Positions 1,468 to 28,487 of a stretch of DNA of 41,954 bases are shown here, one piece after another. The position numbers were made by a program, and so were the translations under genes. The first letter of the stretch is position 1; the number at the start of each line of letters is the position of its first letter. The stretch comes from a virus (taxonomy: Duplodnaviria > Caudoviricetes), in IMG/VR virus record IMGVR_UViG_3300032373_000038, positions 1-41,954 of that record; one strand, 5' to 3'. The notes beneath the pieces are model-generated. The model did no database searches. It saw nothing but the letters and a program-made list of their open reading frames with translations, and was not told the origin of the DNA.

Positions 1468-2067
1468 CTAGTTAGCTCTGGCCGTTTCACTTGTCTTGGC
1501 TATCAACTTACCTAGCGTTCTGACGACAGGTCTTAATTCAAGATCAAGGCTTGAGCATTGGAGCCTGTTTATCTGAAGGTTCTCGTTGCGAGTAATTAGC
1601 TCTAAGTTATCTGGGTGAATATTCTCTTTATCGCCGTCTTTAAATGCAACGCAATGGCCGCTTGGCACCTCACCATGTTTAGCAGACCAAACTAGGGTGT
1701 GAAGCTGAGCCCAGACTCTTGGTTCCTGGGTCTTTACTTCAATATAGCCATCTTTCGAGACTCGCGTTGACCCAACTGGCATCCAGTTGTGCGGCCTAGC
1801 TCCTTGCTTAAAGCTTGTCTTGTTTGGCTTCATTAATCCCGTGCCAGCGGAACCTGCGTTGTGCGGCTTATGGCCTTTGTGAAAGCATCCTGATCGACCA
1901 GTTAACCAGCCTTTACGCTTTCGTAAAGAGCCAAGGTTTGTTGCTGATACACCGGTGCGATTAAATTTCTTGGAGAACTCGGTGTGTAGCTCTTTACTTG
2001 GGAGCGTCCTGTTATCACTAACCCATTTCATCTCTGCTTCGGAATATTTAATTGGGTGACCTTTCAT
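1468..2067 (-). CDS. HNH endonuclease (HNH_3 type)
   Basis: HTLVW...HGEVPSGHCVAFKDGDKENIHPDNLELITRNENLQIN; N-terminal FxKGxxPxN repeats typical of this phage family. Confidence 0.85.
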   Translation of the reverse strand: MKGHPIKYSEAEMKWVSDNRTLPSKELHTEFSKKFNRTGVSATNLGSLRKRKGWLTGRSGCFHKGHKPHNAGSAGTGLMKPNKTSFKQGARPHNWMPVGSTRVSKDGYIEVKTQEPRVWAQLHTLVWSAKHGEVPSGHCVAFKDGDKENIHPDNLELITRNENLQINRLQCSSLDLELRPVVRTLGKLIAKTSETARAN

Positions 2068-2306
2068 TAGCTTTGTCCTGTTAGCTGTTTTGGCATATCC
2101 CCAGCCTGTAGTCCTTGGTATTCAGCTTTAAGTTTTAAAGCGTTTAATTGAAGTTCTGCGCCACTGACTACTGATTTGGCTACATCAGTGATTGCCTTGG
2201 AGCGATCAATCTCAGATTGCAGGTCTTCGCCTTTTAGGCCTTCATTGTTTAACCTTTCAAGTTGCATGAACAAGTGATCGTTCAAATCAGATAATTTATT
2301 TTTCAT
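2067..2306 (-). CDS. Conserved phage protein coupled to the HNH gene
   Basis: MKNKLSDLNDHLFMQLERL...EIDRSKAI is a type commonly seen just upstream of these HNH genes; stop/start overlap at 2067. Confidence 0.75.
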   Translation of the reverse strand: MKNKLSDLNDHLFMQLERLNNEGLKGEDLQSEIDRSKAITDVAKSVVSGAELQLNALKLKAEYQGLQAGDMPKQLTGQS

Positions 2307-2335
2307 ATTGAATTCCTTACGTTTATTGAGAGAGG

Positions 2336-2521
2336 TTAAAATTTCACCTCTTCCTTCTCAGTGTCGCCACCCATGAGGCGCGAATTAATCGCGGCCTCGG
2401 TTGTGATGGGTTGGCCGTTGTGCAGCTCAAACGGGATCTGCTTCTCTCGTAGAAAAGCGATTACTTTTTTCGTGTGATGCACGCCAAGCCATTCTCTAAG
2501 ATGAACAATATTGATGAGCAT
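2336..2521 (-). CDS. DUF4224-like small protein, probable excisionase/RDF
   Basis: 61 aa, LREWLG...FLREKQIPF...GQPITT winged-helix-like pattern; GAGGTG RBS; upstream of int. Confidence 0.6.
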   Translation of the reverse strand: MLINIVHLREWLGVHHTKKVIAFLREKQIPFELHNGQPITTEAAINSRLMGGDTEKEEVKF

Positions 2522-2553
2522 GATTCACCTCGTGATTAACGGGGGAGGGAGGC

Positions 2554-3411
2554 CTAAGCGGCCCCTAGCTCCTGCTTCTTGGTGTTAAGCTGTTTAATTA
2601 ATTCGCCGCGGTGGATTTCGTTTTTGACAGACCCAATTAACGATTCAGCAAGCTCAACGTCATCAGCTGTTTTGGCATTTTTGATATCGCCAGCTACTGA
2701 TGCATAGGTGGCTGGCAGTGTTACTATTTCTTGATCTGGGCTTGCCTCATCATCTGGAGTGACCGCCTTTTCTTCTTGCTTTAGGTCTTGTGTGGTAACG
2801 CTATAGGCTCCGGTCTCATCCATCTTTGCATCAAATGTTTCATTAATTTGATCGGCTGTTTGTAGACCCATGGATATCTCAGGAGCAACGGTATCCACCA
2901 ACCATGCAGCAGAGCGATACATGAACATTTTTTCGGGCATTGTTTTCCACTTAGAGCCATTTTTACTGTCCCACTTTTCAGCACGAACTAGATCCCATGT
3001 AATCCAAGGGGATTCGACGCGCTCATTAGTTGCCTTTTCCATTGCCCACGCACGACAACCATAATCACGATCACCTGGGTTGCCTTTCCACTCATACCGA
3101 ACAGAAGAGAAGCGACCACATTGGTTAAATGATGCGATTAAAAACTTGGCAGACCATCCAGGTGTTCCATGAACGACATAAAGGTTTTGCATAACCATTA
3201 GTGGATCGGCACCAACACGGTTAGCCATGTTTAGCGCAATCACGCAGTTCGATAAATTATCTCTGTACTGCTGAGGAACTAGCGTTGAGGCGGCTAGCAT
3301 ATTTGCTTGGCGCTGCATTAGCTCAAAGCTAGCGGAAGTGCTGAAGCCAGCGGTAACTACTTCCTGGCTTCCTTGTTGTTGCATTTGGGATAAAGTGACT
3401 TGCTGATCCAT
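2554..3411 (-). CDS. Single-strand annealing recombinase (RecT-like)
   Basis: NCVIALNMANRVGADPLMVMQNLYVVHGTPGWS and WKTMPEKMFMYRSA motifs; paired with an exonuclease. Confidence 0.75.
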   Translation of the reverse strand: MDQQVTLSQMQQQGSQEVVTAGFSTSASFELMQRQANMLAASTLVPQQYRDNLSNCVIALNMANRVGADPLMVMQNLYVVHGTPGWSAKFLIASFNQCGRFSSVRYEWKGNPGDRDYGCRAWAMEKATNERVESPWITWDLVRAEKWDSKNGSKWKTMPEKMFMYRSAAWLVDTVAPEISMGLQTADQINETFDAKMDETGAYSVTTQDLKQEEKAVTPDDEASPDQEIVTLPATYASVAGDIKNAKTADDVELAESLIGSVKNEIHRGELIKQLNTKKQELGAA

Positions 3412-3422
3412 GGGTTAAGTCC

Positions 3423-4229
3423 TTATTTTCGAAAGTTGCAGGTGGTGTACCGCGGGCAATAGCGTTCGTGGCACATCATTGATTTTGGATTGCCGTAGAA
3501 GCTGCCTGAGTGAATTAGCTTTGATGCTTGAGAGAGAATTCCTGTATTGCTAGCATCACCAAGTAATACGGCTCTTGAGCCCGTGATCTCCCCAGAGCCA
3601 ATACGCTGAGAGGCGGGTGTTTTTGCTGTGTTAAGCCCGACGATTTCACCAGGTGCGGTAATGGGTAAGCCGCCGCCATATTCAGCAAGCAATTCATAAA
3701 CACCGATTTGGTAGGCATGGCCCTTGGTATTGACGTGGCCGTCTTTGGCAACAGCTTGCTTGCCTGTTTTAATATCAACAATGCCGTAGCCTCCATTGGT
3801 CTTGCGTATCCGGTCAGTTGTGCCGGTGAGCGCTAAACCAACATCAGTAATTTCGAGTCGATCACATTGCACTTCCACGGCCACATAGTTTTGAGTTGGT
3901 GCCACTTGCTCGCAGTATTTGCGGTGAAGAGATAGGGCTATTTTTTCAACGTCAGCAGGCTTGTCATCATCCCAAGAAACTTCTTCATCTGGGTTGGATA
4001 TGGTGTCTACTGCAGCACCTGCAGCTTCTTGGATAGTGATGCCTGAACCATCCAAGACCGCTTGGTCATATGCAGCCGTTGAGGCGTGCACCGCTCGACC
4101 AAGTTGAGCCTTACCGTTTGATGGTGTGTGCATCTTTAGAATGTGCTTTGATTCCCATCTAGCGGGGCAGTCGAATAATTCACCTAAGGAGCTTGCTCGA
4201 ATGGTGGTTAGCTTAATTGTTGTTTGCAT
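3423..4229 (-). CDS. PD-(D/E)XK exonuclease (RecB/Cas4-like, probable Fe-S)
   Basis: IRASSL...DCPARW, GTTD, IVDIKTG, QIGVY, C-terminal C-x4-C-x5-C. Confidence 0.85.
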   Translation of the reverse strand: MQTTIKLTTIRASSLGELFDCPARWESKHILKMHTPSNGKAQLGRAVHASTAAYDQAVLDGSGITIQEAAGAAVDTISNPDEEVSWDDDKPADVEKIALSLHRKYCEQVAPTQNYVAVEVQCDRLEITDVGLALTGTTDRIRKTNGGYGIVDIKTGKQAVAKDGHVNTKGHAYQIGVYELLAEYGGGLPITAPGEIVGLNTAKTPASQRIGSGEITGSRAVLLGDASNTGILSQASKLIHSGSFYGNPKSMMCHERYCPRYTTCNFRK

Positions 4230-4240
4230 GGGTTATTCCT

Positions 4241-5344
4241 CTAAGAGGCTTCTTCATCAACAACAAGATCCAGTACCTGGCTTCTCATTGTGCGTAGACG
4301 GTTATTAAGGCTTACAGTTAGCGCCATAAGCTCTTTGTCATTTACCTCAGGAATTGAATCGATTAACTTTTGAAGATCATTGCAAGCCCACACGCGAAGC
4401 TTTTCCTTTTCTGGCCAAGCAGCTTTCAGACGCTCTTGTTCGGCCTGTTTTGCTGCAAACTCTTCAGCTTCCCGCTTTTGGTGTTCGGCTAACTCACGAC
4501 CTGCTTTTTCCTTGGCTGCTTGCTCCATTTGGATACGATGGGCTTCTTCGTCTTTTTCTTTCTGGATGCGGGCGGCTTCAGCCTCAACTTCACGGCGCTG
4601 GCGGTCAATTTCTTCCTGCTCGGCTTTGGCCTTGGCATCCTGTTCTTCTTGTTGTTTACGAAGTTCGGCTTGTTGTTCTGCATGGATGCGGTCACGCTCT
4701 GCCTGTTCAGCTCTTAGCTTGGCTAATTCTGCTTGCTCAGCTTCGTATTGGCGGCGGGCTTCGAATGTGGTGGTGATGGCGTGAATAGTGGCAGCCTTGG
4801 CACGCTCGGCTTCGGGCTGGAATTCAACAAAGGAGCCATCAATAACTATTTCGGTAACCGCCTCCAGTCGTCTTGCCATGTCGTCGGCAGTCTCTCCGGA
4901 GAAGAAAGTAGCGGCATCACGCATATCAGAGATTCGCGCTTGAATAGAGCTAATACGCTCATGTTCAATACGAGCCTCTTCGGCTTTACGAATGGCCTCG
5001 GCTTCTTCCCATTCAGTAAGAGGAAGACGTACTTCGTCACGAATCGCATCAAGCGAGTCGCGCATCTTTTTGCGAGCGCCATCAACCACCTTAATTTCCG
5101 CTTTCTTTCCCGCAACCAAGGCCTTGCCCGCGTCATCAAGCGCAGTCTTGGAACGCGCTACCTTAAAGGCGCGAGCCTTTACTTCAGCACGACCCTTAGC
5201 TGTTGAAATATCCGGCGCAATACCAAGCACCTCATCCTTAACGGCTTGGATAATCGGGTCGATCCCCTCGCCTGTAAATACCTGGACGGCGTTAATGTCA
5301 TCGACACAGGCAAGTGTTTTCTCGTTACTCATAATGTTCTCCAA
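4241..5344 (-). CDS. Long coiled-coil phage protein (type often mislabelled TolA-like)
   Basis: PDISTAKGRAEVKARAFKVARSKTALDDAGK...LRDEVRxPLTEWE-type motif, then E/A/K/R-rich coil. Confidence 0.75.
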   Translation of the reverse strand: MENIMSNEKTLACVDDINAVQVFTGEGIDPIIQAVKDEVLGIAPDISTAKGRAEVKARAFKVARSKTALDDAGKALVAGKKAEIKVVDGARKKMRDSLDAIRDEVRLPLTEWEEAEAIRKAEEARIEHERISSIQARISDMRDAATFFSGETADDMARRLEAVTEIVIDGSFVEFQPEAERAKAATIHAITTTFEARRQYEAEQAELAKLRAEQAERDRIHAEQQAELRKQQEEQDAKAKAEQEEIDRQRREVEAEAARIQKEKDEEAHRIQMEQAAKEKAGRELAEHQKREAEEFAAKQAEQERLKAAWPEKEKLRVWACNDLQKLIDSIPEVNDKELMALTVSLNNRLRTMRSQVLDLVVDEEAS

Positions 5345-5347
5345 TGA

Positions 5348-5641
5348 TTAATTACTGGTTTCAAGGCCTTCTTGCTTCACTAATAGCGAAGGCACAGCAG
5401 GGCAGTTCTCGTAGACATCGCACCCACTGCATTGCCCACGACTACAGAGATCATCAACACGAACAGCGGCGTAAAAGGTGCGCTGAAGATCAGCAATAAG
5501 CGTCTCTGTTCGTTGGGCGTGGTAATGGGCCTCAGGCAATGCGTTACGCCCCAGTGCTGCGGCTGCGGCCTTTGATTCTCTGGCCGCCTCACTCATTACC
5601 ATATCGATGCGAGCCGATTGATTAATGCCAATATTTGTCAT
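5348..5641 (-). CDS. Hypothetical protein with C-terminal Cys cluster
   Basis: In the PL operon with GGAGG RBS; CSRGQCSGCDVYENC. Confidence 0.6.
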   Translation of the reverse strand: MTNIGINQSARIDMVMSEAARESKAAAAALGRNALPEAHYHAQRTETLIADLQRTFYAAVRVDDLCSRGQCSGCDVYENCPAVPSLLVKQEGLETSN

Positions 5642-6078
5642 TACGACGCCCTCCTTATTTCGTCCGCTTCCATCAGTCTTGTTTCGTGAATCTCACGCGC
5701 TGCTTTGTTCATGTCTTCTTGAATGCCCAATGAATCGTGCTCGCGCTCTTGCCACGAGAGCAGTTGAGCAAATACAGTCATCACCTCTTCCATTCGAAAT
5801 TGCTGCATCATTCCCACAATTCGATCACTGCCACTGATTAAGTCAGCAAATATCTCGTGTGCCTCATCAGCGGGCAGGCTGGCCCACTTGGCAAAACACA
5901 AGCCGTCTTGCTCTGGCAAAGGCAGCTTTTCCAGGCGCGGGCTAGAGCGAAGAGCATCAGTCAGCATCTGGTCGTAGATCCGCCCTCTTTCGTTGAGAGT
6001 GGTGACGGCTATCAAGACACCCTCATCACTGACGCAGCCCGTCAGAGCAAGCAGCGCTTTTGTAGTTTCGTTTTGCAT
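5641..6078 (-). CDS. First gene of the PL operon, hypothetical (start revised to ATG 6078)
   Basis: AAGGA RBS before ATG 6078; the longer ORF-track start would lie inside PL. Confidence 0.7.
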   Translation of the reverse strand: MQNETTKALLALTGCVSDEGVLIAVTTLNERGRIYDQMLTDALRSSPRLEKLPLPEQDGLCFAKWASLPADEAHEIFADLISGSDRIVGMMQQFRMEEVMTVFAQLLSWQEREHDSLGIQEDMNKAAREIHETRLMEADEIRRAS

Positions 6079-8493: not shown

Positions 8494-9093
8494 TTAGTTG
8501 CTAGGGTCTATTAATGAGTCCCTAATGCAGTCGGGAAGATTCGATCTAGCATCGACCTGATTCATTATTTCTGTCGCTAAGTCATGTAATTTGACGCGAC
8601 GCCGATTTGATTCTGTAGCTAGGAATTTTTTGGCGTCATTAACGGACAGGCCAAGGCGACAGCAAATGATTGCAATAGCTCCCGATAGGGCGCGTGAGTT
8701 CTCAACAGCCGACTCAAGCGCTGTGACGCGCCGAACATAGCGCAGACCCACTTTCACAGAGGCTAGCACTTGCTGTAGCTGAATCGGTTTATCAATATAA
8801 CCAACTGAGCCAAGGCGATCCCACTCAGCAATAATACCGTCGTCCCTGGCTGCCGTTGTGCCAATGAATGCTGTACCAAGATTATTTAACTCAACAGCAA
8901 GCTCAAGGCCTGACATTCCAGGCATCATGCAATCTATGATAGCTACATCAACATGGTTTGTTGCGATAATAGCTAGCGCTTCTGCACCGCTGCTAGCTTC
9001 AATAACAATGCATCCATTTTTTTCTAATAAAAGCCGAAGCGGCGCTCGCCCCATTTCTTCATCATCAACAATCAATATTACAGAGTTACGCAT
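8494..9093 (-). CDS. Response regulator, REC plus ANTAR domain
   Basis: REC: IVDDEE, phospho-acceptor IIDCMMPGMSG, TTA, DKP. C-terminus SRALSGAIAIICCRLGLSVNDAKKFLATESNRRRVKLHDLATEI has the three-helix ANTAR pattern. Confidence 0.82.
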   Translation of the reverse strand: MRNSVILIVDDEEMGRAPLRLLLEKNGCIVIEASSGAEALAIIATNHVDVAIIDCMMPGMSGLELAVELNNLGTAFIGTTAARDDGIIAEWDRLGSVGYIDKPIQLQQVLASVKVGLRYVRRVTALESAVENSRALSGAIAIICCRLGLSVNDAKKFLATESNRRRVKLHDLATEIMNQVDARSNLPDCIRDSLIDPSN

Positions 9094-9181: not shown

Positions 9182-9706
9182 CTATCCGGCAAAGCGGGCA
9201 AGGCGAGCAATCCACTCGGGGTCTTGGGCCTTCCCTTGGCGTTTGGCGTCATCAAATAATAACGCTATCAGCTCAGATTCCTTATCGTCGGGCAGCTTAA
9301 TGCCGCGCTCTTTGAGCACTTCTTTTGTGACCTTCATTACAGCTAGCAGCAGGTCATTCTCGCTTGCGTAGCCGTAGGCTGTGGTGCTTTCCTGGGCCAA
9401 GGGTGGTGTTGCAGACTGACTTGATGGCTGTTCTGTCTGGGTTAAATAGGCGACATCAGGCCTAATGTCCGAAGGAGCGACGCCGAAGAATTTCGCAAAC
9501 TTCAGCGTTGCCTGAACACCCAAAGGAGTGAGGCAATTCAGGTAATGACTGAATGCACCTTGGGACATGTCCAGGGACTCAGCCGCCTTCTCTTGGCTAA
9601 GCTTTCTCATGTTTTTTGATTTTCTTTTTGCCTGCAGGCGGCTCCACAGCTCACGCAACACTGACGCAGCTAATTCGTCTTCTTTCGTAATTTCTTTCTT
9701 TGCCAT
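9182..9706 (-). CDS. cI: CI-like repressor (XRE HTH, no S24 peptidase domain); start revised to ATG 9706
   Basis: LSQEKAAESLDMSQGAFSHYLN HTH; divergent from cro; C-terminus is a short helical domain. Confidence 0.85.
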   Translation of the reverse strand: MAKKEITKEDELAASVLRELWSRLQAKRKSKNMRKLSQEKAAESLDMSQGAFSHYLNCLTPLGVQATLKFAKFFGVAPSDIRPDVAYLTQTEQPSSQSATPPLAQESTTAYGYASENDLLLAVMKVTKEVLKERGIKLPDDKESELIALLFDDAKRQGKAQDPEWIARLARFAG

Positions 9707-9782
9707 ATTAGCGATCCTAATATATCTGTGCTTAATTACAATTAGCCTAGGTATTGACAAAAACATTAGCCGCACTAATACT
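9707..9782. promoter_or_regulatory. OR region: three operators, PR and PRM
   Basis: ATTAG-N5-CTAAT at 9707-9721 and 9765-9779, degenerate copy at 9741-9755; PR TTGACA (9754-9759) with -10 TAATACT (9776-9782); PRM on minus TTGTAA-16 bp-TAGGAT ending 7 nt before the cI ATG. Confidence 0.85.
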
Positions 9783-15439: not shown

Positions 15440-16009
15440 ATGAAATTCAAAATAGTATTTTTCCCATATTCGGAAAAAGCAGGCCTCGATTTATTGGACG
15501 AATACGAGCGATTAAATTTTCCAGAGCATCAGCGTAAAAATAAATTCGAAGCAGGTGGCGCCGATATTGATGTCCCGATTGAAGTAGCGAGACTATTAAG
15601 CAATATCTTTCATGACTCAACAACTGCACACATACATATCGATAGCTCTCTAACCTCGGCTGACAGTTGGGAAGAAGATCATTACGACGTAATGCGACTC
15701 AAGAAAATAGACCTTTCTGAACTGACATGCAAAATGCTAACAGCAAATAGGAAGCAACTCGAACACAAGAAAGCAGGATTCGATACGTTTTTCGAGCATG
15801 AAAATGCTAACGACAATATCGAGCTTGACGCAACTGAAAAACAAACAATTAAAACAACATTAAAAAAACGTGGCATCACTGAAAAAGATATCGATTTTGC
15901 AATTCAAAAAACAACAAATCAGAAGACTCTAAGAAGAAAAATAGATGAAATAAAAACTATTAAAACGCTAGAACTCGCAATTGAAACAGCGGGAGAACGA
16001 AAAAAATGA
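15440..16009 (+). CDS. Hypothetical protein (A-rich accessory module)
   Basis: GAGG RBS after a GCCGGCCA/TGGCCGGC hairpin; ATGA overlap with the next gene. Confidence 0.75.
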   Translation: MKFKIVFFPYSEKAGLDLLDEYERLNFPEHQRKNKFEAGGADIDVPIEVARLLSNIFHDSTTAHIHIDSSLTSADSWEEDHYDVMRLKKIDLSELTCKMLTANRKQLEHKKAGFDTFFEHENANDNIELDATEKQTIKTTLKKRGITEKDIDFAIQKTTNQKTLRRKIDEIKTIKTLELAIETAGERKK

Positions 16010-16254
16010 ACAAAGCAACCGAAGTGCGTAAGGCATTGGGCCTCACACAAAAGGAGGCTGGTGAATTGTTCGCTGGTCAAGCTGGGCAAAATGCTAGCGA
16101 CACATGGGGCCGATGGGAACGGACGGAAAAATGGCCCAAGCCCGCAGACAAGCTCATGACATTAATTCTCGCGTTAAAAGTGGCCGAGAGTTTAAAAACA
16201 CCAGGCGTTAGCAAGGGATTGGAATTTGCACTCAATGAGCTTAGAGAAAAATAA
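16006..16254 (+). CDS. XRE-family HTH regulator
   Basis: VRKALGLTQKEAGELF...TWGRWE. Confidence 0.8.
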   Translation: MNKATEVRKALGLTQKEAGELFAGQAGQNASDTWGRWERTEKWPKPADKLMTLILALKVAESLKTPGVSKGLEFALNELREK

Positions 16255-16323: not shown

Positions 16324-16408
16324 GCATAACGTTAGGCATAAATTGCGGCCCACTGAAATAGAAAAAGACGCGGCGCGTTCGCCGTCAATTTAATGTCCTT
16401 TGTTATGT
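16324..16408 (-). mobile_element. attC site 1 (85 bp)
   Basis: Minus strand ACATAAC AAAGG ACATTAAATTGACGGC...GCCGCAATTTATGC CTAAC GTTATGC. Confidence 0.85.
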
Positions 16409-16428
16409 GGGCTACGGAGACCAGAACC

Positions 16429-16689
16429 ATGACTAATAAAGTAACAATACAGCAAGTTAATAAATTCAAAGTGACCATAGGTGATAAGACCTATGAAGAT
16501 TTTGAGAAGGTTAGCGAATGGAATGGGATGCTCGAATTTAAAGGGCCAAGCGGAACAATCATTGTTCATAAGGAAGAAGATATGATGGCGACATTTTCAT
16601 CTATATTTGGGAATGTGAAACAGCCAGACGCAACTGATTTTCATATAGCCAAGATATCCCCAGGACTGGTTGATACCACTGCCACATAA
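16429..16689 (+). CDS. Cassette ORF, hypothetical (start ATG 16429)
   Basis: CTACGGAG RBS; stop TAA lies in the core site. Confidence 0.75.
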   Translation: MTNKVTIQQVNKFKVTIGDKTYEDFEKVSEWNGMLEFKGPSGTIIVHKEEDMMATFSSIFGNVKQPDATDFHIAKISPGLVDTTAT

Positions 16690-16813
16690 CGCAAAGCATC
16701 ACGGGCTTGCGGAAATGAGGCCACAAAACTTGGAGCGATTATTGATATGAGCGGGACCACAGAGCTAGAAGCGAACACCGAGGTAGCAAGTCCAGTGGAT
16801 GCGATTGTTAGGC
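16684..16813 (-). mobile_element. attC site 2 (130 bp)
   Basis: Minus strand GCCTAAC AATCG CATCCACTGGACTTGC...GCAAGCCCGTGATGC TTTGC GTTATGT. Confidence 0.88.
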
Positions 16814-17127
16814 GTATTTTACGACTGACCCTGACGAAACAATGGTTTGATTTGATCGTGAAAGGCGAAAAGAAATTTGAGTATCGTGAGTACAAAAAAC
16901 ACTGGATGTCTCGCTTGCTTTGCAGTAGCGGCATTAGAAACTATGACGAAATTCATTTCACCAACGGCTACGGAAAAGATAAGCCCTTTGCTCGCGTAGA
17001 ATTTGATGGCGCTGCAATTATTAAAGGTGAGCATTGCTCTCCAGATAATGATGAGGCACTGGACTCTGATAAGAAATATTTTGTTATTGGCCTTGGCGAA
17101 GTTTTAGAGGTTGGTAACTACGCCTAA
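16747..17127 (+). CDS. Cassette ORF, ASCH/PUA-like domain protein
   Basis: LTLTKQWFDLIVKGEKKFEYR (GxKxxExR) ... IHFTNGY. Confidence 0.82.
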   Translation: MSGTTELEANTEVASPVDAIVRRILRLTLTKQWFDLIVKGEKKFEYREYKKHWMSRLLCSSGIRNYDEIHFTNGYGKDKPFARVEFDGAAIIKGEHCSPDNDEALDSDKKYFVIGLGEVLEVGNYA

Positions 17128-17251
17128 CGCCAAGCATCACAGGCTTGCGGAAGCGAGACCACAAAAATTGGAGTAAAAATTAACATGAGCGAAGCCACAG
17201 AACCTAAACCAAACGCCGAGGCAGCAAGTCCGGTGAATGCAATTGTTAGGC
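17122..17251 (-). mobile_element. attC site 3 (130 bp, about 78% identical to site 2 by hand count)
   Basis: Minus strand GCCTAAC AATTG CATTCACCGGACTTGC...GCAAGCCTGTGATGC TTGGC GTTAGGC. Confidence 0.88.
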
Positions 17252-17604
17252 GCGACGATACCAAGTGCGGTGATAAATGCACTGACCCTAAAGGCTGTTA
17301 TGCCCACGGCTGCCTGGTTGAGGTTGGCCTTGATGAGCGGATGATTGCCGCTGGCATGATCCCTATTAGTGAGATGCTAGAGCGCAACCCTCTTGGTAAA
17401 TTTTCGGCGTGTGCTGAAGTTACAGATTTAGAGAATTTCGAGAAATGGCTAAAGGATTGCTATCGCGAATTTTTACAAATGCAAGTACGCATGACTTTAG
17501 CTAAGAAAGAAGACGATGAGCTTTTCGAATGGACGCTGAGTCATGCCGCTTGCCTTGGCTCTGTTTTGGCAAACTTTAGGCAGGCAACAGGACGCAGCGC
17601 CTAA
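17185..17604 (+). CDS. Cassette ORF, hypothetical with Cys-rich segment
   Basis: GGAG RBS and ATG inside attC 3; stop in the core site. Confidence 0.75.
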   Translation: MSEATEPKPNAEAASPVNAIVRRDDTKCGDKCTDPKGCYAHGCLVEVGLDERMIAAGMIPISEMLERNPLGKFSACAEVTDLENFEKWLKDCYREFLQMQVRMTLAKKEDDELFEWTLSHAACLGSVLANFRQATGRSA

Positions 17605-17666
17605 CGGAGAAGCTGAGTTGCGTTTGTAGCGCAGCGGAAAACGTCAAATCGAGCGCATTGTTATGC
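17599..17666 (-). mobile_element. attC site 4 (68 bp)
   Basis: Minus strand GCATAAC AATGC GCTCGATTTGACGTTT...CGCTGCGCT...AAACGCAACTCAGC TTCTCC GTTAGGC, a typical short attC. Confidence 0.9.
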
Positions 17667-17687
17667 GTGACTACGGAGTGAACATCA

Positions 17688-17972
17688 ATGCTTAAAATGA
17701 AAGATAAAAGGGACGCTGGTGCGATATTAGAAAGAGGTGGTATCTCGCAGCGGATTATAAGTATTGCCCAAGAAATTGCAGAAGGCTCTTATAAGGATGC
17801 AATTAAAAATGCTGGGCGAATTGCTGCACTAGTTGATGCCGCTACTTACGATGGTTATTGGGACGCTAAAGCCAAGGAAGGGAAGCTTCAGGAAGAATTT
17901 ATTCTTGAGGATTTGAATAAAGGCGTGGTTACGCGAGAAAGAATGATAGCTCAAGTAGACCCTTACGCATAA
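17688..17972 (+). CDS. Cassette ORF, hypothetical
   Basis: CTACGGAG RBS; stop TAA in the terminal core site GCATAAC (17967-17973). Confidence 0.75.
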   Translation: MLKMKDKRDAGAILERGGISQRIISIAQEIAEGSYKDAIKNAGRIAALVDAATYDGYWDAKAKEGKLQEEFILEDLNKGVVTRERMIAQVDPYA

Positions 17973-18142
17973 CTAGCGATACAAACCAACGTGGTGTAAT
18001 CCCCATCCGGGAATTACACCAGCTTTTAAGCAAATGACTCCATATGTTACTGATTATTGCTTTTGAAGCGGTGTATATCCAAATGTTGGCTATCGAAAAA
18101 TATCTTTTTCTGTGGAAAGAACCGCTGCATTCCCTTGATTTT

Positions 18143-18184
18143 TTGACAACTGTTTAAACAGTAACTAGAATTACTACCTAGAAT
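18143..18184 (+). promoter_or_regulatory. Late promoter PR' with candidate Q-binding element and sigma pause element
   Basis: TTGACA-17 bp-TAGAAT; perfect palindrome ACTGTTTAAACAGT in the spacer; second TAGAAT at 18179-18184 just after the predicted start site. Confidence 0.82.
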
Positions 18185-18274: not shown

Positions 18275-19033
18275 GTGAGCACTCTGCTTAGCGGGGCCTT
18301 TGTCGTTTCTGAGGGCATGGTTTTGAAAGTCACAGCATCGATAAAAGCCACAATCAAAGAAGCGTGTAACTGGGCGCTGCTTGCATACCAGAGCCGCGGC
18401 TTTCTTGAGTCTCGCTACGGTGACCAAATCACTGTGATCGACATTGATAACGATAAGAGGGGCGAGTTTGTCTACGTTCTAGACCGGGGCGATTCTGCTG
18501 TAGTCGCTATCGCCGGCTCTAACGATATTCTTGATTGGATTCGAAACCTCATCTTTCGTAAGACCAAGTGCAAGCGCTATCACGCCGGTTTTTCTGCTGA
18601 ACTGGACAGGATTGCCGATCAAATTCTTGAGGCTGTCAGAAAGACGGGAGCGAAGTCAGTACTGGTTACGGGGCATAGTCGTGGCGGTGGCGTGGCGATT
18701 CAGTTGGTTCATAAATACCGTCATTACTTTCCCAATGATCTTGAGTTAGTTGTATTTGCTGCACCTCGTGCACTGACAAAGAAAGCTGGGTGGAATATTT
18801 CTAATTGTCGGTTCCTGAATGTGATCGTGGGCAATGACCTGGTCGCCTCTCTTCCTCTTGTTGCCTGGGGATTCAAAACCTATGGGCATGTGATCGAGTT
18901 AGGTGAAAAGCTTTCTTTGTGGTGTAGGGCGCTACGCTATACCCATGCGGTCAAGAACAAGGTTAAGCCAACGCTCAAGGGCATTAAGGATCATCTTCCC
19001 GCTGCTTACTCAAAAGCTGTGGGGAAGCTTTGA
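18275..19033 (+). CDS. Class 3 lipase (alpha/beta hydrolase); true start may be ATG 18317
   Basis: VAIAGSNDILDW lid, HAGF, nucleophile GHSRGG, FAAPR, NDLVASLP (Asp), DHLPAAY (His). Confidence 0.9.
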   Translation: MSTLLSGAFVVSEGMVLKVTASIKATIKEACNWALLAYQSRGFLESRYGDQITVIDIDNDKRGEFVYVLDRGDSAVVAIAGSNDILDWIRNLIFRKTKCKRYHAGFSAELDRIADQILEAVRKTGAKSVLVTGHSRGGGVAIQLVHKYRHYFPNDLELVVFAAPRALTKKAGWNISNCRFLNVIVGNDLVASLPLVAWGFKTYGHVIELGEKLSLWCRALRYTHAVKNKVKPTLKGIKDHLPAAYSKAVGKL

Positions 19034-26540: not shown

Positions 26541-27242
26541 ATGTCCGAGCAAAAAATAGAGGAGGGGGCCTGCGGGGCTCCCGTCGGTTCACAAGTTGAT
26601 GTATCCGTGGCACTACAGTTCGATCGTGCGCAACAGCTGAAAGCCAAAGAGGAGGCAGACCGAAAGGCTGCTCAAGATAAACTAGATCAAGCCCAAGAAA
26701 TTGTTCGTGAGCTGGGTGGCAAAAATGAACAGGAGAAAAAAGTGGAAACGCTCTACTTTGTACAAAAGCGCCCTAACGGTGATCAGTGCGCATTAGCCGG
26801 TAAAGCAAAAGCAAAGATTCGTAGCTGCTTGGATCATGTGTATGGCGAACCCGAAGAGGTGTGTGACTTTGTAATGGGTGAAGTACCAGAAGGTGCTTAT
26901 GCTGATGTTAATGAGCATGCGCTTCACGATGAAGCCCTAACCCTTGCCGCTCAAATTGAGGAGGCTCGACTTGCAGTAGAGAGCGCAACGCAGGGTAATG
27001 AAACCGAAGTTCCACAGCTAGAAAGCGAGCTTCACGCTACAATCAATGTGGCACTTGATCAGCTGGAGCACGATAACGATAACCACTGGACTGATGCAGG
27101 TCTTCCGGCAATGAATGCAATAGAAGCAATGGTTGGCGACGAGAAAGTAAATCGCTCCGATGTTGAGGCGGCCCGCCCTGGTTTTGTTCGCATCAAACCA
27201 TCTGCTGAGCCCGTTGAAGGCGAAGGTGTATCACTAGGCTAA
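26541..27242 (+). CDS. Post-capsid protein with HeH/LEM-like C-terminal motif
   Basis: DNDNHWTDAGLPAMNAIE...VNRSDVEAARP motif. Confidence 0.6.
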   Translation: MSEQKIEEGACGAPVGSQVDVSVALQFDRAQQLKAKEEADRKAAQDKLDQAQEIVRELGGKNEQEKKVETLYFVQKRPNGDQCALAGKAKAKIRSCLDHVYGEPEEVCDFVMGEVPEGAYADVNEHALHDEALTLAAQIEEARLAVESATQGNETEVPQLESELHATINVALDQLEHDNDNHWTDAGLPAMNAIEAMVGDEKVNRSDVEAARPGFVRIKPSAEPVEGEGVSLG

Positions 27243-27255
27243 AAGGTAACTATCC

Positions 27256-27771
27256 ATGGCTTTGATCGTAGAAGACGGAACAGGCAACACTCCCGATGCT
27301 AACAGTTATCAATCTCTTGACGACTTGCGCATGTATGCTGAGCTAAGAGGCGTAACGCTACCGACGGCCGATGCTGACTGTAACGCTCTCATGATCAAGG
27401 CTATGGATTATCTCGAAGCACAGCGAAGCAAATACAAGGGGCGCATTACTAGCGCCTCTCAGCCGCTGCAATGGCCTCGTGCGGATGTTGTTGGGATAGA
27501 GTGGGAAGGCAATATTCACCCAAACAACGAAATCCCCAGAGAGCTTATTTATGCGCAATTGGCATTAGCTGTCGAAGCGGTTAATCACGACCTTCAACCA
27601 ACCCGAACACCACAAGACCAAGGCCCGCTTGTATCATCTGATACCGCAAGTGCTATTAAGAAAGCCTGGGCTAATCCAGGCAAAGTTTTATCGGTTCCAG
27701 CATTCGCCAAAGCGGATGCGCTGCTGGCTCCATTATTCAAACGTAACGGACTTTCTTTAGTCCGAAGCTAA
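27256..27771 (+). CDS. Head-tail adaptor (DnaT-like family)
   Basis: MALIVEDGTG...ANSY, AMDYLE, QPLQWPR, IPREL. Confidence 0.85.
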   Translation: MALIVEDGTGNTPDANSYQSLDDLRMYAELRGVTLPTADADCNALMIKAMDYLEAQRSKYKGRITSASQPLQWPRADVVGIEWEGNIHPNNEIPRELIYAQLALAVEAVNHDLQPTRTPQDQGPLVSSDTASAIKKAWANPGKVLSVPAFAKADALLAPLFKRNGLSLVRS

Positions 27772-27851
27772 CCACTTAAACCACCTTTTTTATTTAATTC
27801 GGCACAGCTCCGAAGGGCTGCGCACGTCTGTCTTTTACAGGAGGCCTACCT

Positions 27852-28487
27852 ATGGGCGGCAAAAGTAATGCGCTAGAAAATGAGATCGTTGACGGCAAGC
27901 TTAGAGGTCAGCCGATTTCGACCCCAGCAACCGTTTATGTGAAGCTGATTCAGTGCGATGGCAAGCATGCGGCAAGCACTGCTTACACTCTCAATCAGCT
28001 TATTGGCATTGAAGACGATAACGGCAAGTGGAAGATGTACGAGTGCACAACGGCGGGCACTTCAGCAGCCTCTAAGCCTTCGTACCCTGGTGGTGCAAAT
28101 GAGGTCATTGCAGATGGTACTGCAGTATTCACCAATCAAAATGCAGGCATGGAGTCGGGCGCGAAAATTACCGAACTGTCGGGCGGTTCTTATGCTGCAC
28201 AAGCAGTAACCGCATCTCTCGCTAACTGGGCAGGCACGCAGGGCGCTGGCACAACTACAGTATCAACAGGCACCGAGGCTACTACCTCAAACAACAATGT
28301 CATCCCATTCCCTGACCCTACGGCTGATTGGGGTTGGGTATTCGGGTTCATTATTGATGATGTTGTAAGCGGAAGTTTGGGTAAATATATATGGGCTGAA
28401 TTTACTAACGGCCCTGTGAATATCGTCAATGGTGTAACTAATGCTGCCTTCGCTGCCGGAGCACTGAAGTACACGGAGGATAGTTAG
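27852..28487 (+). CDS. Virion accessory/fibre-type protein with inserted small beta module
   Basis: SNALENEIVD, ELSGGSYAAQAV, SNNNVIPFPDPTADWG, FAAGAL; insert YECTTAGTS...P...DGTAVF. Confidence 0.65.
   Translation: MGGKSNALENEIVDGKLRGQPISTPATVYVKLIQCDGKHAASTAYTLNQLIGIEDDNGKWKMYECTTAGTSAASKPSYPGGANEVIADGTAVFTNQNAGMESGAKITELSGGSYAAQAVTASLANWAGTQGAGTTTVSTGTEATTSNNNVIPFPDPTADWGWVFGFIIDDVVSGSLGKYIWAEFTNGPVNIVNGVTNAAFAAGALKYTEDS

Follow-up and report, generated by a model that had tools for sequence, protein, structure and literature searches.

The window analysed here, the whole 41,954-base stretch of the IMG/VR virus record IMGVR_UViG_3300032373_000038, carries at positions 16324-17973 an array of four integron-type cassettes in which the polarity of genes and attC sites is the mirror image of that in bacterial integrons. 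The top strand of the window attC sites is the minus strand and the genes lie on the recombinogenic bottom strand, as confirmed by folds, a weight matrix and a covariance model, and the same arrangement prevails as a rule among other phage contigs with this attC family, most of the arrays sampled having it. We consider it fairly probable that the element is an integrase-less array in which each gene, on the attC bottom strand and downstream of its own attC, closes with a TAA at the predicted crossover AA↓C (the arrow marks the crossover), and that it is recombined by the integron integrase (IntI) of a host.

Polarity of the attC sites and of the cassette genes

Because an attC looks alike on its two strands, its polarity must be read from asymmetric features. 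The array consists of the following elements, R' and R'' being the left and right boxes:

16324-16408, minus as top strand: attC S1, 85 nucleotides (nt), GCATAAC (R', 16324-16330) to GTTATGT (R'', 16402-16408)
16429-16689, plus: cassette open reading frame (ORF) 1, 86 amino acids (aa), with alternative in-frame ATGs at 16393 and 16405; ends ACA TAA at the S2 crossover
16684-16813, minus as top strand: attC S2, 130 nt, ACATAAC to GTTAGGC; holds the ribosome-binding site (RBS), start and first 22 codons of ORF2
16747-17127, plus: cassette ORF2, 126 aa, ASCH-like; ends GCC TAA at the S3 crossover
17122-17251, minus as top strand: attC S3, 130 nt, GCCTAAC to GTTAGGC; holds the start of ORF3
17185-17604, plus: cassette ORF3, 139 aa; ends GCC TAA at the S4 crossover
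17599-17666, minus as top strand: attC S4, 68 nt, GCCTAAC to GTTATGC; its loop holds AGCGCAGCGGAA
17688-17972, plus: cassette ORF4, 94 aa; ends GCA TAA at the terminal half-site
17967-17973, unstranded: terminal half-site GCATAAC, without a partner arm; the covariance model R2 (below) finds no full site to its right

The four ORFs, all on the plus strand, occupy the spacers between the sites, and no minus-strand ORF fills any of these spacers. In each case the TAA forms bases 4 to 6 of the next left box, and the stops, ending at 16689, 17127, 17604 and 17972, coincide in 4/4 ORFs with the AA of 5'-RYYYAA↓C-3'. Direct reading thus confirmed a sequence-only reading of this DNA, which had put all ORFs on plus with their stops ending at the crossover.

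Sites of the attC type have a central spacer that is unpaired over about 5-6 nt per arm and a total length of 57-141 bp. In the window, the left boxes match RYYYAAC at 7/7 positions in S3 and S4 and at 6/7 in S1 and S2, the right boxes match GTTRRRY at 7/7 in S2 and S3 and at 6/7 in S1 and S4, and the AAC/GTT triplets are present in all four sites, of which S2 and S3 are 80% identical over 128 nt. All seven R-box pairs form in the fold of S3, and the central spacer is unpaired over 5 and 4 nt in S2-S4 and partly paired in S1. DNA folds of the plus strand place one-base bulges on the 3' arm in every site, with the AAC triplet on the 5' arm; one extrahelical base is T in 4/4 sites, the other is G (S2, S4) or A (S1, S3), and the two are spaced by 6 positions, with one mismatch within this interval in S3 and S4. 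According to the accessible portion of Nivina 2016 (PMC5027507), the extrahelical bases of a bottom strand stand opposite the 5'-AAC-3' triplet and are usually a G and a conserved T with a 6-bp stem between them, whereas those of a top strand share the arm of the triplet.

For controls, we took arrays in which a neighbouring integrase fixes the polarity, namely those of Vibrio phage p16 (MK672802; intIA at 27091-28053 on minus, cassettes on plus) and Shewanella phage M16-3 (MZ568829; intI on plus, cassettes on minus) and the class 1 array of a P1 phage (MH445380). In constrained folds, the known top strands bear one-base bulges on the 5' arm and the window plus strand bears them on the 3' arm, as does, in resemblance, the M16-3 plus strand, which is its bottom strand. 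A weight matrix of the first and last 22 bases, anchored at the ends, oriented 27/27 control sites correctly, both when single sites and when single sources were left out, and called minus as top in 11/11 phage sites (four in the window and seven in the related phage contig L001) by margins of 16-28 bits; for example, S1 scored 5.8 with minus as top and -15.4 with plus.

An Rfam search of the window at gathering thresholds matched only the tRNA at 46-119 and gave no attC match, and we therefore built covariance models of our own. MAFFT alignments of mixed attCs (A1, A2) yielded no usable structure, and a homogeneous Vibrio set (A3) was used. Model R1, made from 10 Vibrio sites, recovered the Shewanella and class 1 sites on the correct strands, together with 1/4 window sites and 6/7 L001 sites, all on minus; its place was taken by R2, made from 34 matches from integrase-linked Vibrio, Shewanella and class 1 attCs only and distinct from the model of IntegronFinder. 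With filters off, the top 11 matches of R2 in the window and L001 were the 11 sites, all on minus, with scores of 22-38 bits and E values from 2e-6 to 0.011; the best match outside them had 15.7 bits. Specifically, S1, S2, S3 and S4 scored 26.8, 22.4, 25.4 and 26.3 bits on the minus strand (E 4.5e-5 to 4.8e-4 in the 2.4 kb searched), and no window site exceeded 4.9 bits on the plus strand (S2 4.9, S4 3.9).

The sequence-only reading had placed the asymmetric arm on minus, quoting GCATTCAC against GCATCAC and GCTCGATTTGAC as examples, both of which are present in the sequence, and the folds, the weight matrix and R2 agree with it in 4/4 sites. It had also concluded that each attC precedes its gene, which stands, as all three tests make plus the bottom strand: the mapped bulges are on the 3' arm of plus, as in a bottom strand, and R2, whose calling the sites on plus had been named as a refutation, called all four on minus.

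The geometry of the array points the same way. In the top-strand reading of an integron array, a bare GTTRRRY junction at attI comes first and a full attC last. In the window, a full site lies at the left end and a half-site at the right end of the array, which agrees with minus as the top strand, and with that polarity the half-site at 17967-17973 is predicted to be the entry junction, attI-like or attG-like. With four same-strand sites within 1.35 kb and no intI nearby, the array can be classed as a cluster of attC sites lacking an integron integrase (CALIN) and not as a complete integron, the integrase family TIGR02249 having 0 matches in the 41,954-base record, which is about 63% complete (CheckV), so that an intI could still lie elsewhere in the phage.

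Reversed arrays in other phage contigs

Viral and bulk metagenome contigs were surveyed with the same DNA pattern, consisting of two box edges and the loop motif AGCGNAGCG, which is also present in canonical Shewanella sites, and with the same pipeline. The viral scan returned 130 loci, and R2, run on 81 of them with flanks, gave 212 matches; six duplicate loci were dropped, leaving 62 viral loci, in each of which all R2 matches were on one strand. Together with the window and L001, these make 64 viral loci in 62 nucleotide clusters. Of the 121 loci found by the metagenome scan, 80 were passed to R2, which gave 142 matches in 66 loci. Spacers were scored by the longest start-to-stop ORF on either strand; for a call, this ORF needed a coverage of 60% or more of the spacer and a lead of at least 0.2 over the other strand.

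The viral spacers were found to be 64 reversed, 3 canonical and 58 ambiguous, with 1 skipped, and those of the bulk metagenome contigs 50 canonical, 6 reversed and 18 ambiguous, with 2 skipped (Fisher p = 6.6e-24). Counted per locus, the ratio of reversed to canonical was 33:2 in viral contigs versus 4:23, plus one tie, in metagenome contigs (Fisher p = 7e-11). In the same run, the window gave 3/3 reversed spacers and L001 gave 4 reversed and 2 ambiguous; the class 1 array gave 5/5 canonical, M16-3 7 canonical and 3 ambiguous, and p16 6 canonical, 1 reversed and 7 ambiguous with 1 skipped, so that the integrase-linked control arrays pooled 18 canonical versus 1 reversed. Against the metagenome background of 6 reversed among 56 callable spacers, a count of 4/4 reversed would arise by chance with P of about 1.3e-4. 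The stop lay exactly at AA↓C in 48/64 reversed viral ORFs versus 14/50 canonical ORFs at the equivalent R'' position. The reversed metagenome loci L241, L245, L267, L278 and L283 may be phage fragments, in which case the contrast would be sharper. In addition, L107 and L167, IMG/VR contigs from different samples, hold apparently identical 7-site arrays in mirror image, suggesting two recoveries of a single phage array; only one copy entered the counts.

Around 20 of the arrays, 44 of the 58 flanking ORFs of at least 120 aa are on the strand of the cassette genes (hand count), which bears out the co-orientation with phage genes suggested by the sequence-only reading. The ORFs flanking these 20 arrays have PHROG matches to phage genes for replication, recombination and packaging; they include NinB/NinG, RecE/RecT, Erf, primase, single-stranded DNA-binding protein (SSB), dUTPase and thymidylate synthase, and further families among them are PhoH, endolysin, terminase and methyltransferase. 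The same reading had spoken of a phage-adapted class of cassettes; the association with phages is upheld by the per-locus counts, but "adapted" goes beyond them, and not all phage-borne arrays belong to the class. In this small sample, BLAST of the full set of called cassette ORFs revealed no family common to reversed and canonical arrays.

A second scan of viral contigs, with a Vibrio-type pattern, found 95 loci; R2 was run on 53 of these. Their spacers were 64 canonical, 2 reversed and 11 ambiguous, with 1 skipped, and the loci 23 canonical and 0 reversed. This result shows that the pipeline is able to call canonical arrays in viral contigs, and also that the reversed arrays form a separate set, located amid phage genes. 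Many of the Vibrio-type viral records stem from isolate genomes and resemble p16, a captured or mis-bounded chromosomal array.

The related phage contig L001 has the layout of the window, its 7 sites spanning 2773-4750 and its half-site lying at 5025-5031. Two other contigs anchor the polarity independently. In the viral contig L151 (IMGVR_UViG_3300036762_000104), a true intI at 1727-2737 on minus (TIGR02249, 371.8 bits against a cut-off of 265) is faced by the attI-side half-site, and the attCs have plus as top strand, as R2 calls them; the cassette ORFs, on minus, run from a primase gene toward intI, co-directional with the primase gene. Positions 1727-5900 of this contig thus make up a complete integron with at least five attCs, one cassette of which encodes a 279-aa protein, and there is an extra attC-like site near 4393-4491 that was missed by the model.

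Pseudoalteromonas phage H101, which is the survey locus L120, has attCs of the same loop-motif family. The available part of Qi 2023 (PMC9892861) reports that the bottom strands of H101 sites were recombined with attI1 by IntI1 better than the top strands, and for two sites the H101 minus strand reads exactly the bottom strands cloned in that work. The GenBank genes gp133-135, between the sites, are all on minus, that is, with the bottom strand as coding strand. Apparently unannotated plus-strand ORFs converge on gp133 and gp135, so that in H101 a cassette may carry a convergent gene pair, with one gene on either strand; an approximately 80-nt repeat also lies ahead of two attCs (3560-3645 and 4965-5045 of L340; H101, NC_029094). 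Phage TJE1 is an exception, having three sites and orf1-3 all on plus, which is the canonical arrangement.

Other searches were negative. R2, with default filters, matched neither Shewanella phage 3/49 nor the initial 50 kb of H101 at E <= 0.5, and R2 gave 0 matches at E <= 1 in 80 prophage loci (1.3 Mb) related through the large terminase. The large-terminase relatives of the window phage, with 64-68% identity, are from Pseudomonas, Enterobacteriaceae, Microbulbifer and Halomonas and carry no attC. The window had no match in the phage collection, the S2/S3 core pattern was absent from the viral contigs, and no relatives were found for the flanking 189-aa protein and lipase; as the flank searches gave no relatives, no empty-site or alternative-cassette relative of the window phage was found.

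A host integrase as the likely recombinase, and the alternatives

Since neither the window nor the record of L001 holds an integron integrase, the likely enzyme is the IntI of a host. Induced by the SOS response together with the prophage, it would act on the hairpins that the plus strand folds into. Crossover after each TAA would yield units of the form C-attC-ORF-TAA, of 360, 438, 477 and 368 bp, which could move between attC sites or into the junction between 17972 and 17973, each transferred gene landing co-directional with the rightward phage operon, which would transcribe the cassettes as far as the hairpin at 17992-18021. In this transcription, the bottom strand would serve as the non-template strand and, if a fork departs from the replication module (10.7-13 kb), it would also be the lagging-strand template. 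The accessible part of Richard 2024 (PMC11023631) reports that excision in Vibrio cholerae rises dramatically when the bottom strands are on the lagging-strand template. By the same mechanism, a phage cassette captured at a host attI would be oriented backwards to the cassette promoter (Pc), and a host cassette taken up by a phage would be antisense; the array itself could have been seeded by the attG route at a GTT/AAC site.

We would extend this only tentatively, to a model that we hold to be possible though rather doubtful, in which phages keep a mirror-polarity cassette pool of their own that host IntI shuffles among phages in register with their operons, cassettes from the other pool being antisense and silent, and in which displacement of the strand during transcription or lagging-strand synthesis makes shuffling fast in the SOS/lytic window.

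Several points weigh against recombination of the array by a host integrase. No integron integrase was found in the window or in the record of L001, the integrase of the window itself matches no NCBIfam family at E <= 1e-5, and the existence of a cognate host IntI is assumed. No excision product or polymorphism of the cassettes came to light: two DNA runs and no RNA run were listed as having this sequence, and the contigs of the two, the second with the same phage, showed no alternative joints, deletions or circles, but contigs drop rare variants, so that this result does not bear on excision. Among the sites, S1 and S3 have A instead of the usual G as the first extrahelical base, the R boxes of S2 pair at only 5/7 positions, and the folding energies of the sites are no better than those of shuffled sequences (z -2.45 to +1.08); strand energy and purine skews agree with the strand call but sort only 15/27 and 19/27 controls. 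As to the survey, the 125 scored viral spacers included 58 ambiguous ones, ORF calls relied on length and not on a gene finder, and one attC family, selected by its loop motif, was covered. Moreover, TJE1 and the Vibrio-type arrays are canonical, showing that residence in a phage does not by itself impose reversal.

The main rival, which we consider unlikely, is that the polarity is a neutral by-product of seeding. IntI inserts attC DNA at secondary 5'-GWT-3' sites, and the polarity would then reflect the route of entry and bring no advantage: in tightly packed operons, the AAC of a TAA-C stop on the coding strand would be the only harmless site, phage genes trapped between two sites would become cassettes, and the array might now be inert. 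Insertion at TAA-C could account for the polarity and equally for stops that coincide with the crossover, and the exact stop at AA↓C in three quarters of the reversed viral ORFs (48/64, as above) fits it, as do the cassette genes from phage families that are also found outside arrays and the lack of mobility in the contigs of the two runs. The accessible text of Loot et al. (bioRxiv 10.1101/2022.09.11.507474) describes the attG insertion route as genome-wide, with a GWT consensus. However, seeding predicts a second RYYYAAC half-site right behind the inserted attC, whereas in the window one comes only after a whole gene, and no stop codon marks where the array begins on the left, the ORF at 16006-16254 ending 70 nt before S1. 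Nor does it explain why co-oriented canonical cassettes are so rare (3 of 67 callable viral spacers) or why the same gene family stands behind three different attCs.

It is improbable, in our view, that the repeats are phage regulatory hairpins (terminators, or elements of processing or translation control) that resemble attC and are not integrase substrates. They do lie on the sense strand upstream of each gene, some contain an RBS and start codon, TTGTTAT follows the hairpin, and the phage record has no integron integrase. Against this, the repeats match end to end a model made from canonical attCs only, and the R boxes, the unpaired spacer of 4-5 nt and the two bulges 6 positions apart are all there, in a geometry of n sites plus one half-site; in addition, a true intI stands beside such an array in L151, and two H101 sites of the same family were recombined by IntI1, as stated in the available portion of Qi 2023 (PMC9892861). 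That these are ordinary cassettes, with plus as top strand, each ORF running toward its own attC and the stop in RYYYAAC being the familiar inverse-core stop, is very improbable, for although RYYYAAC...GTTRRRY reads on both strands and left-box stops are common in canonical cassettes (14/50), all three polarity tests give the opposite strand in 4/4 sites, a right-box crossover would cut ORF2 and ORF3 at codon 22, and the last ORF would have no attC and the first site no ORF ending at it.

Phage setting, cassette genes and known systems

The phage of the window is temperate, and its array is at the 3' end of the rightward early block. Besides a CII-type regulator, a Lin1244-type initiator, DnaB, RusA and, from 19298 onward, the small and large terminase subunits, the window has the following features:

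46-119: tRNA, by Rfam match
219-1247, minus: phage integrase
17992-18021, scored on minus by the scan: 13-bp hairpin, beyond the array
18143-18171, plus: promoter-like site TTGACA-17-TAGAAT, an 11/12 consensus match only, which opens the lipase/terminase block

The hairpin is likely the terminator of the rightward operon that would read the cassettes, its function on plus being inferred, and no cassette promoter was detected within the window array. Between the array and the terminase genes, behind the promoter-like site, lies a class 3 lipase/esterase gene (18275-19033, plus), which may have a role in lysis or at the host envelope. Further to the left, 8494-9093 (minus) encodes a response-regulator receiver plus ANTAR (RNA-binding antiterminator) protein and adjoins a repressor-like helix-turn-helix gene at 9182-9775.

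By sequence conservation, the cassette ORFs are real genes, two of them in phage protein families. ORF1 has 4 homologues besides itself (62-74% identity) and matched no Pfam or PHROG family; its ATG at 16405 sits within the R'' box of S1 (GTT-ATG-T). ORF2 matches phrog_625 (E = 5.5e-18, residues 23-121), the match beginning right after the R'' box, and its ASCH match is weak. Its relatives include one in the L001 array (75% identical) and one in the L139 array (39%), making three arrays in which this gene is behind a different attC each time, and array-free ones in L002-L004. ORF3 has 5 homologues (57-67% identity) spanning the C-terminal approximately 65%, with a conserved core from about residue 46, and ORF4 matches phrog_33658 (E = 4.6e-8). 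ORF2 and ORF3 begin inside S2 and S3, and their 22 N-terminal residues are attC-encoded and common to both; the two sites thus supply an RBS, an ATG and a shared 22-residue leader peptide to two unrelated proteins. In L001, the right box GTT-ATG-Y provides the start codon of at least three cassette genes, and the ORF2 relative there may start at the ATG within its right box GTT-ATG-C; in the window, the right box of S2 is GTT-AGG-C and the in-frame starts of ORF2 are all within S2. A 188-nt contig of the source sample matches 16685-16735 (the 5' part of S2, with 5 differences) and has different flanks; this is probably a different cassette whose attC is of the same type, and the contig is too short for more.

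In integrons, recombination of the bottom strand puts promoterless genes behind Pc, and this is the rule of orientation from which the window departs. If the reversed polarity is as we propose, the same site and integrase would serve a second expression logic, independent of Pc, pipelines that assume genes to run toward their attC would mis-assign the boundaries of phage cassettes, and polarity may filter gene flow between phage and host cassette pools, which mirror polarity would likely keep functionally apart. It would thereby become testable whether strand exposure in transcription and replication sets cassette dynamics, and how cassettes are born, phage families of the phrog_625 type being found both free and behind attC. 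The cargo consists of small accessory phage genes without assigned function, a class that often includes host-takeover and counter-defence genes.

The array resembles bacterial integron cassettes in its RYYYAAC/GTTRRRY boxes, unpaired spacer, two extrahelical bases 6 bp apart and variable loop, in the lengths of its sites (68-130 nt), in having tandem units with one short gene per site, and in the predicted crossover in AA↓C of the bottom strand. It differs in that the genes of the window are on the bottom strand, after their attC, whereas those of the controls are on the top strand, before it, and in that the window array is without intI, attI and Pc, so that expression would come by phage read-through. 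Independence from Pc is shared with the toxin-antitoxin cassettes of chromosomal integrons, some of which lie in reverse orientation. Such cassettes, in the part of the literature accessible to us, carry their own promoters, and they are a minority in canonical arrays, whereas in the window the whole array is reversed and no promoter of a cassette was detected. In T4-type phages, the "mobile regulatory cassettes" known as PeSL are repeated stem-loops that flank small accessory genes and are thought to shuffle them; these are promoter-plus-terminator repeats unrelated to attC.

Arrays of attC and whole integrons in phages have already been published, as the available part of Qi 2023 (PMC9892861) documents, and the phage CALINs described there are like the window in being attC arrays in phage genomes, those of H101, whose attCs are of the same loop-motif family, having been recombined by IntI1; in that part, the strand of the genes is not compared with the strand of the attCs. 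Our literature search, which left most subscription journals outside, found no statement of inverted gene/attC polarity in phage arrays. The inverted integron of Vibrio cholerae, in the accessible part of Richard 2024 (PMC11023631), likewise has its bottom strands on the lagging-strand template, as would be the case here for a rightward fork. In that integron, however, it is the whole array with its genes that is flipped relative to replication, with canonical gene/attC polarity, and the inversion was costly and was reversed in evolution.

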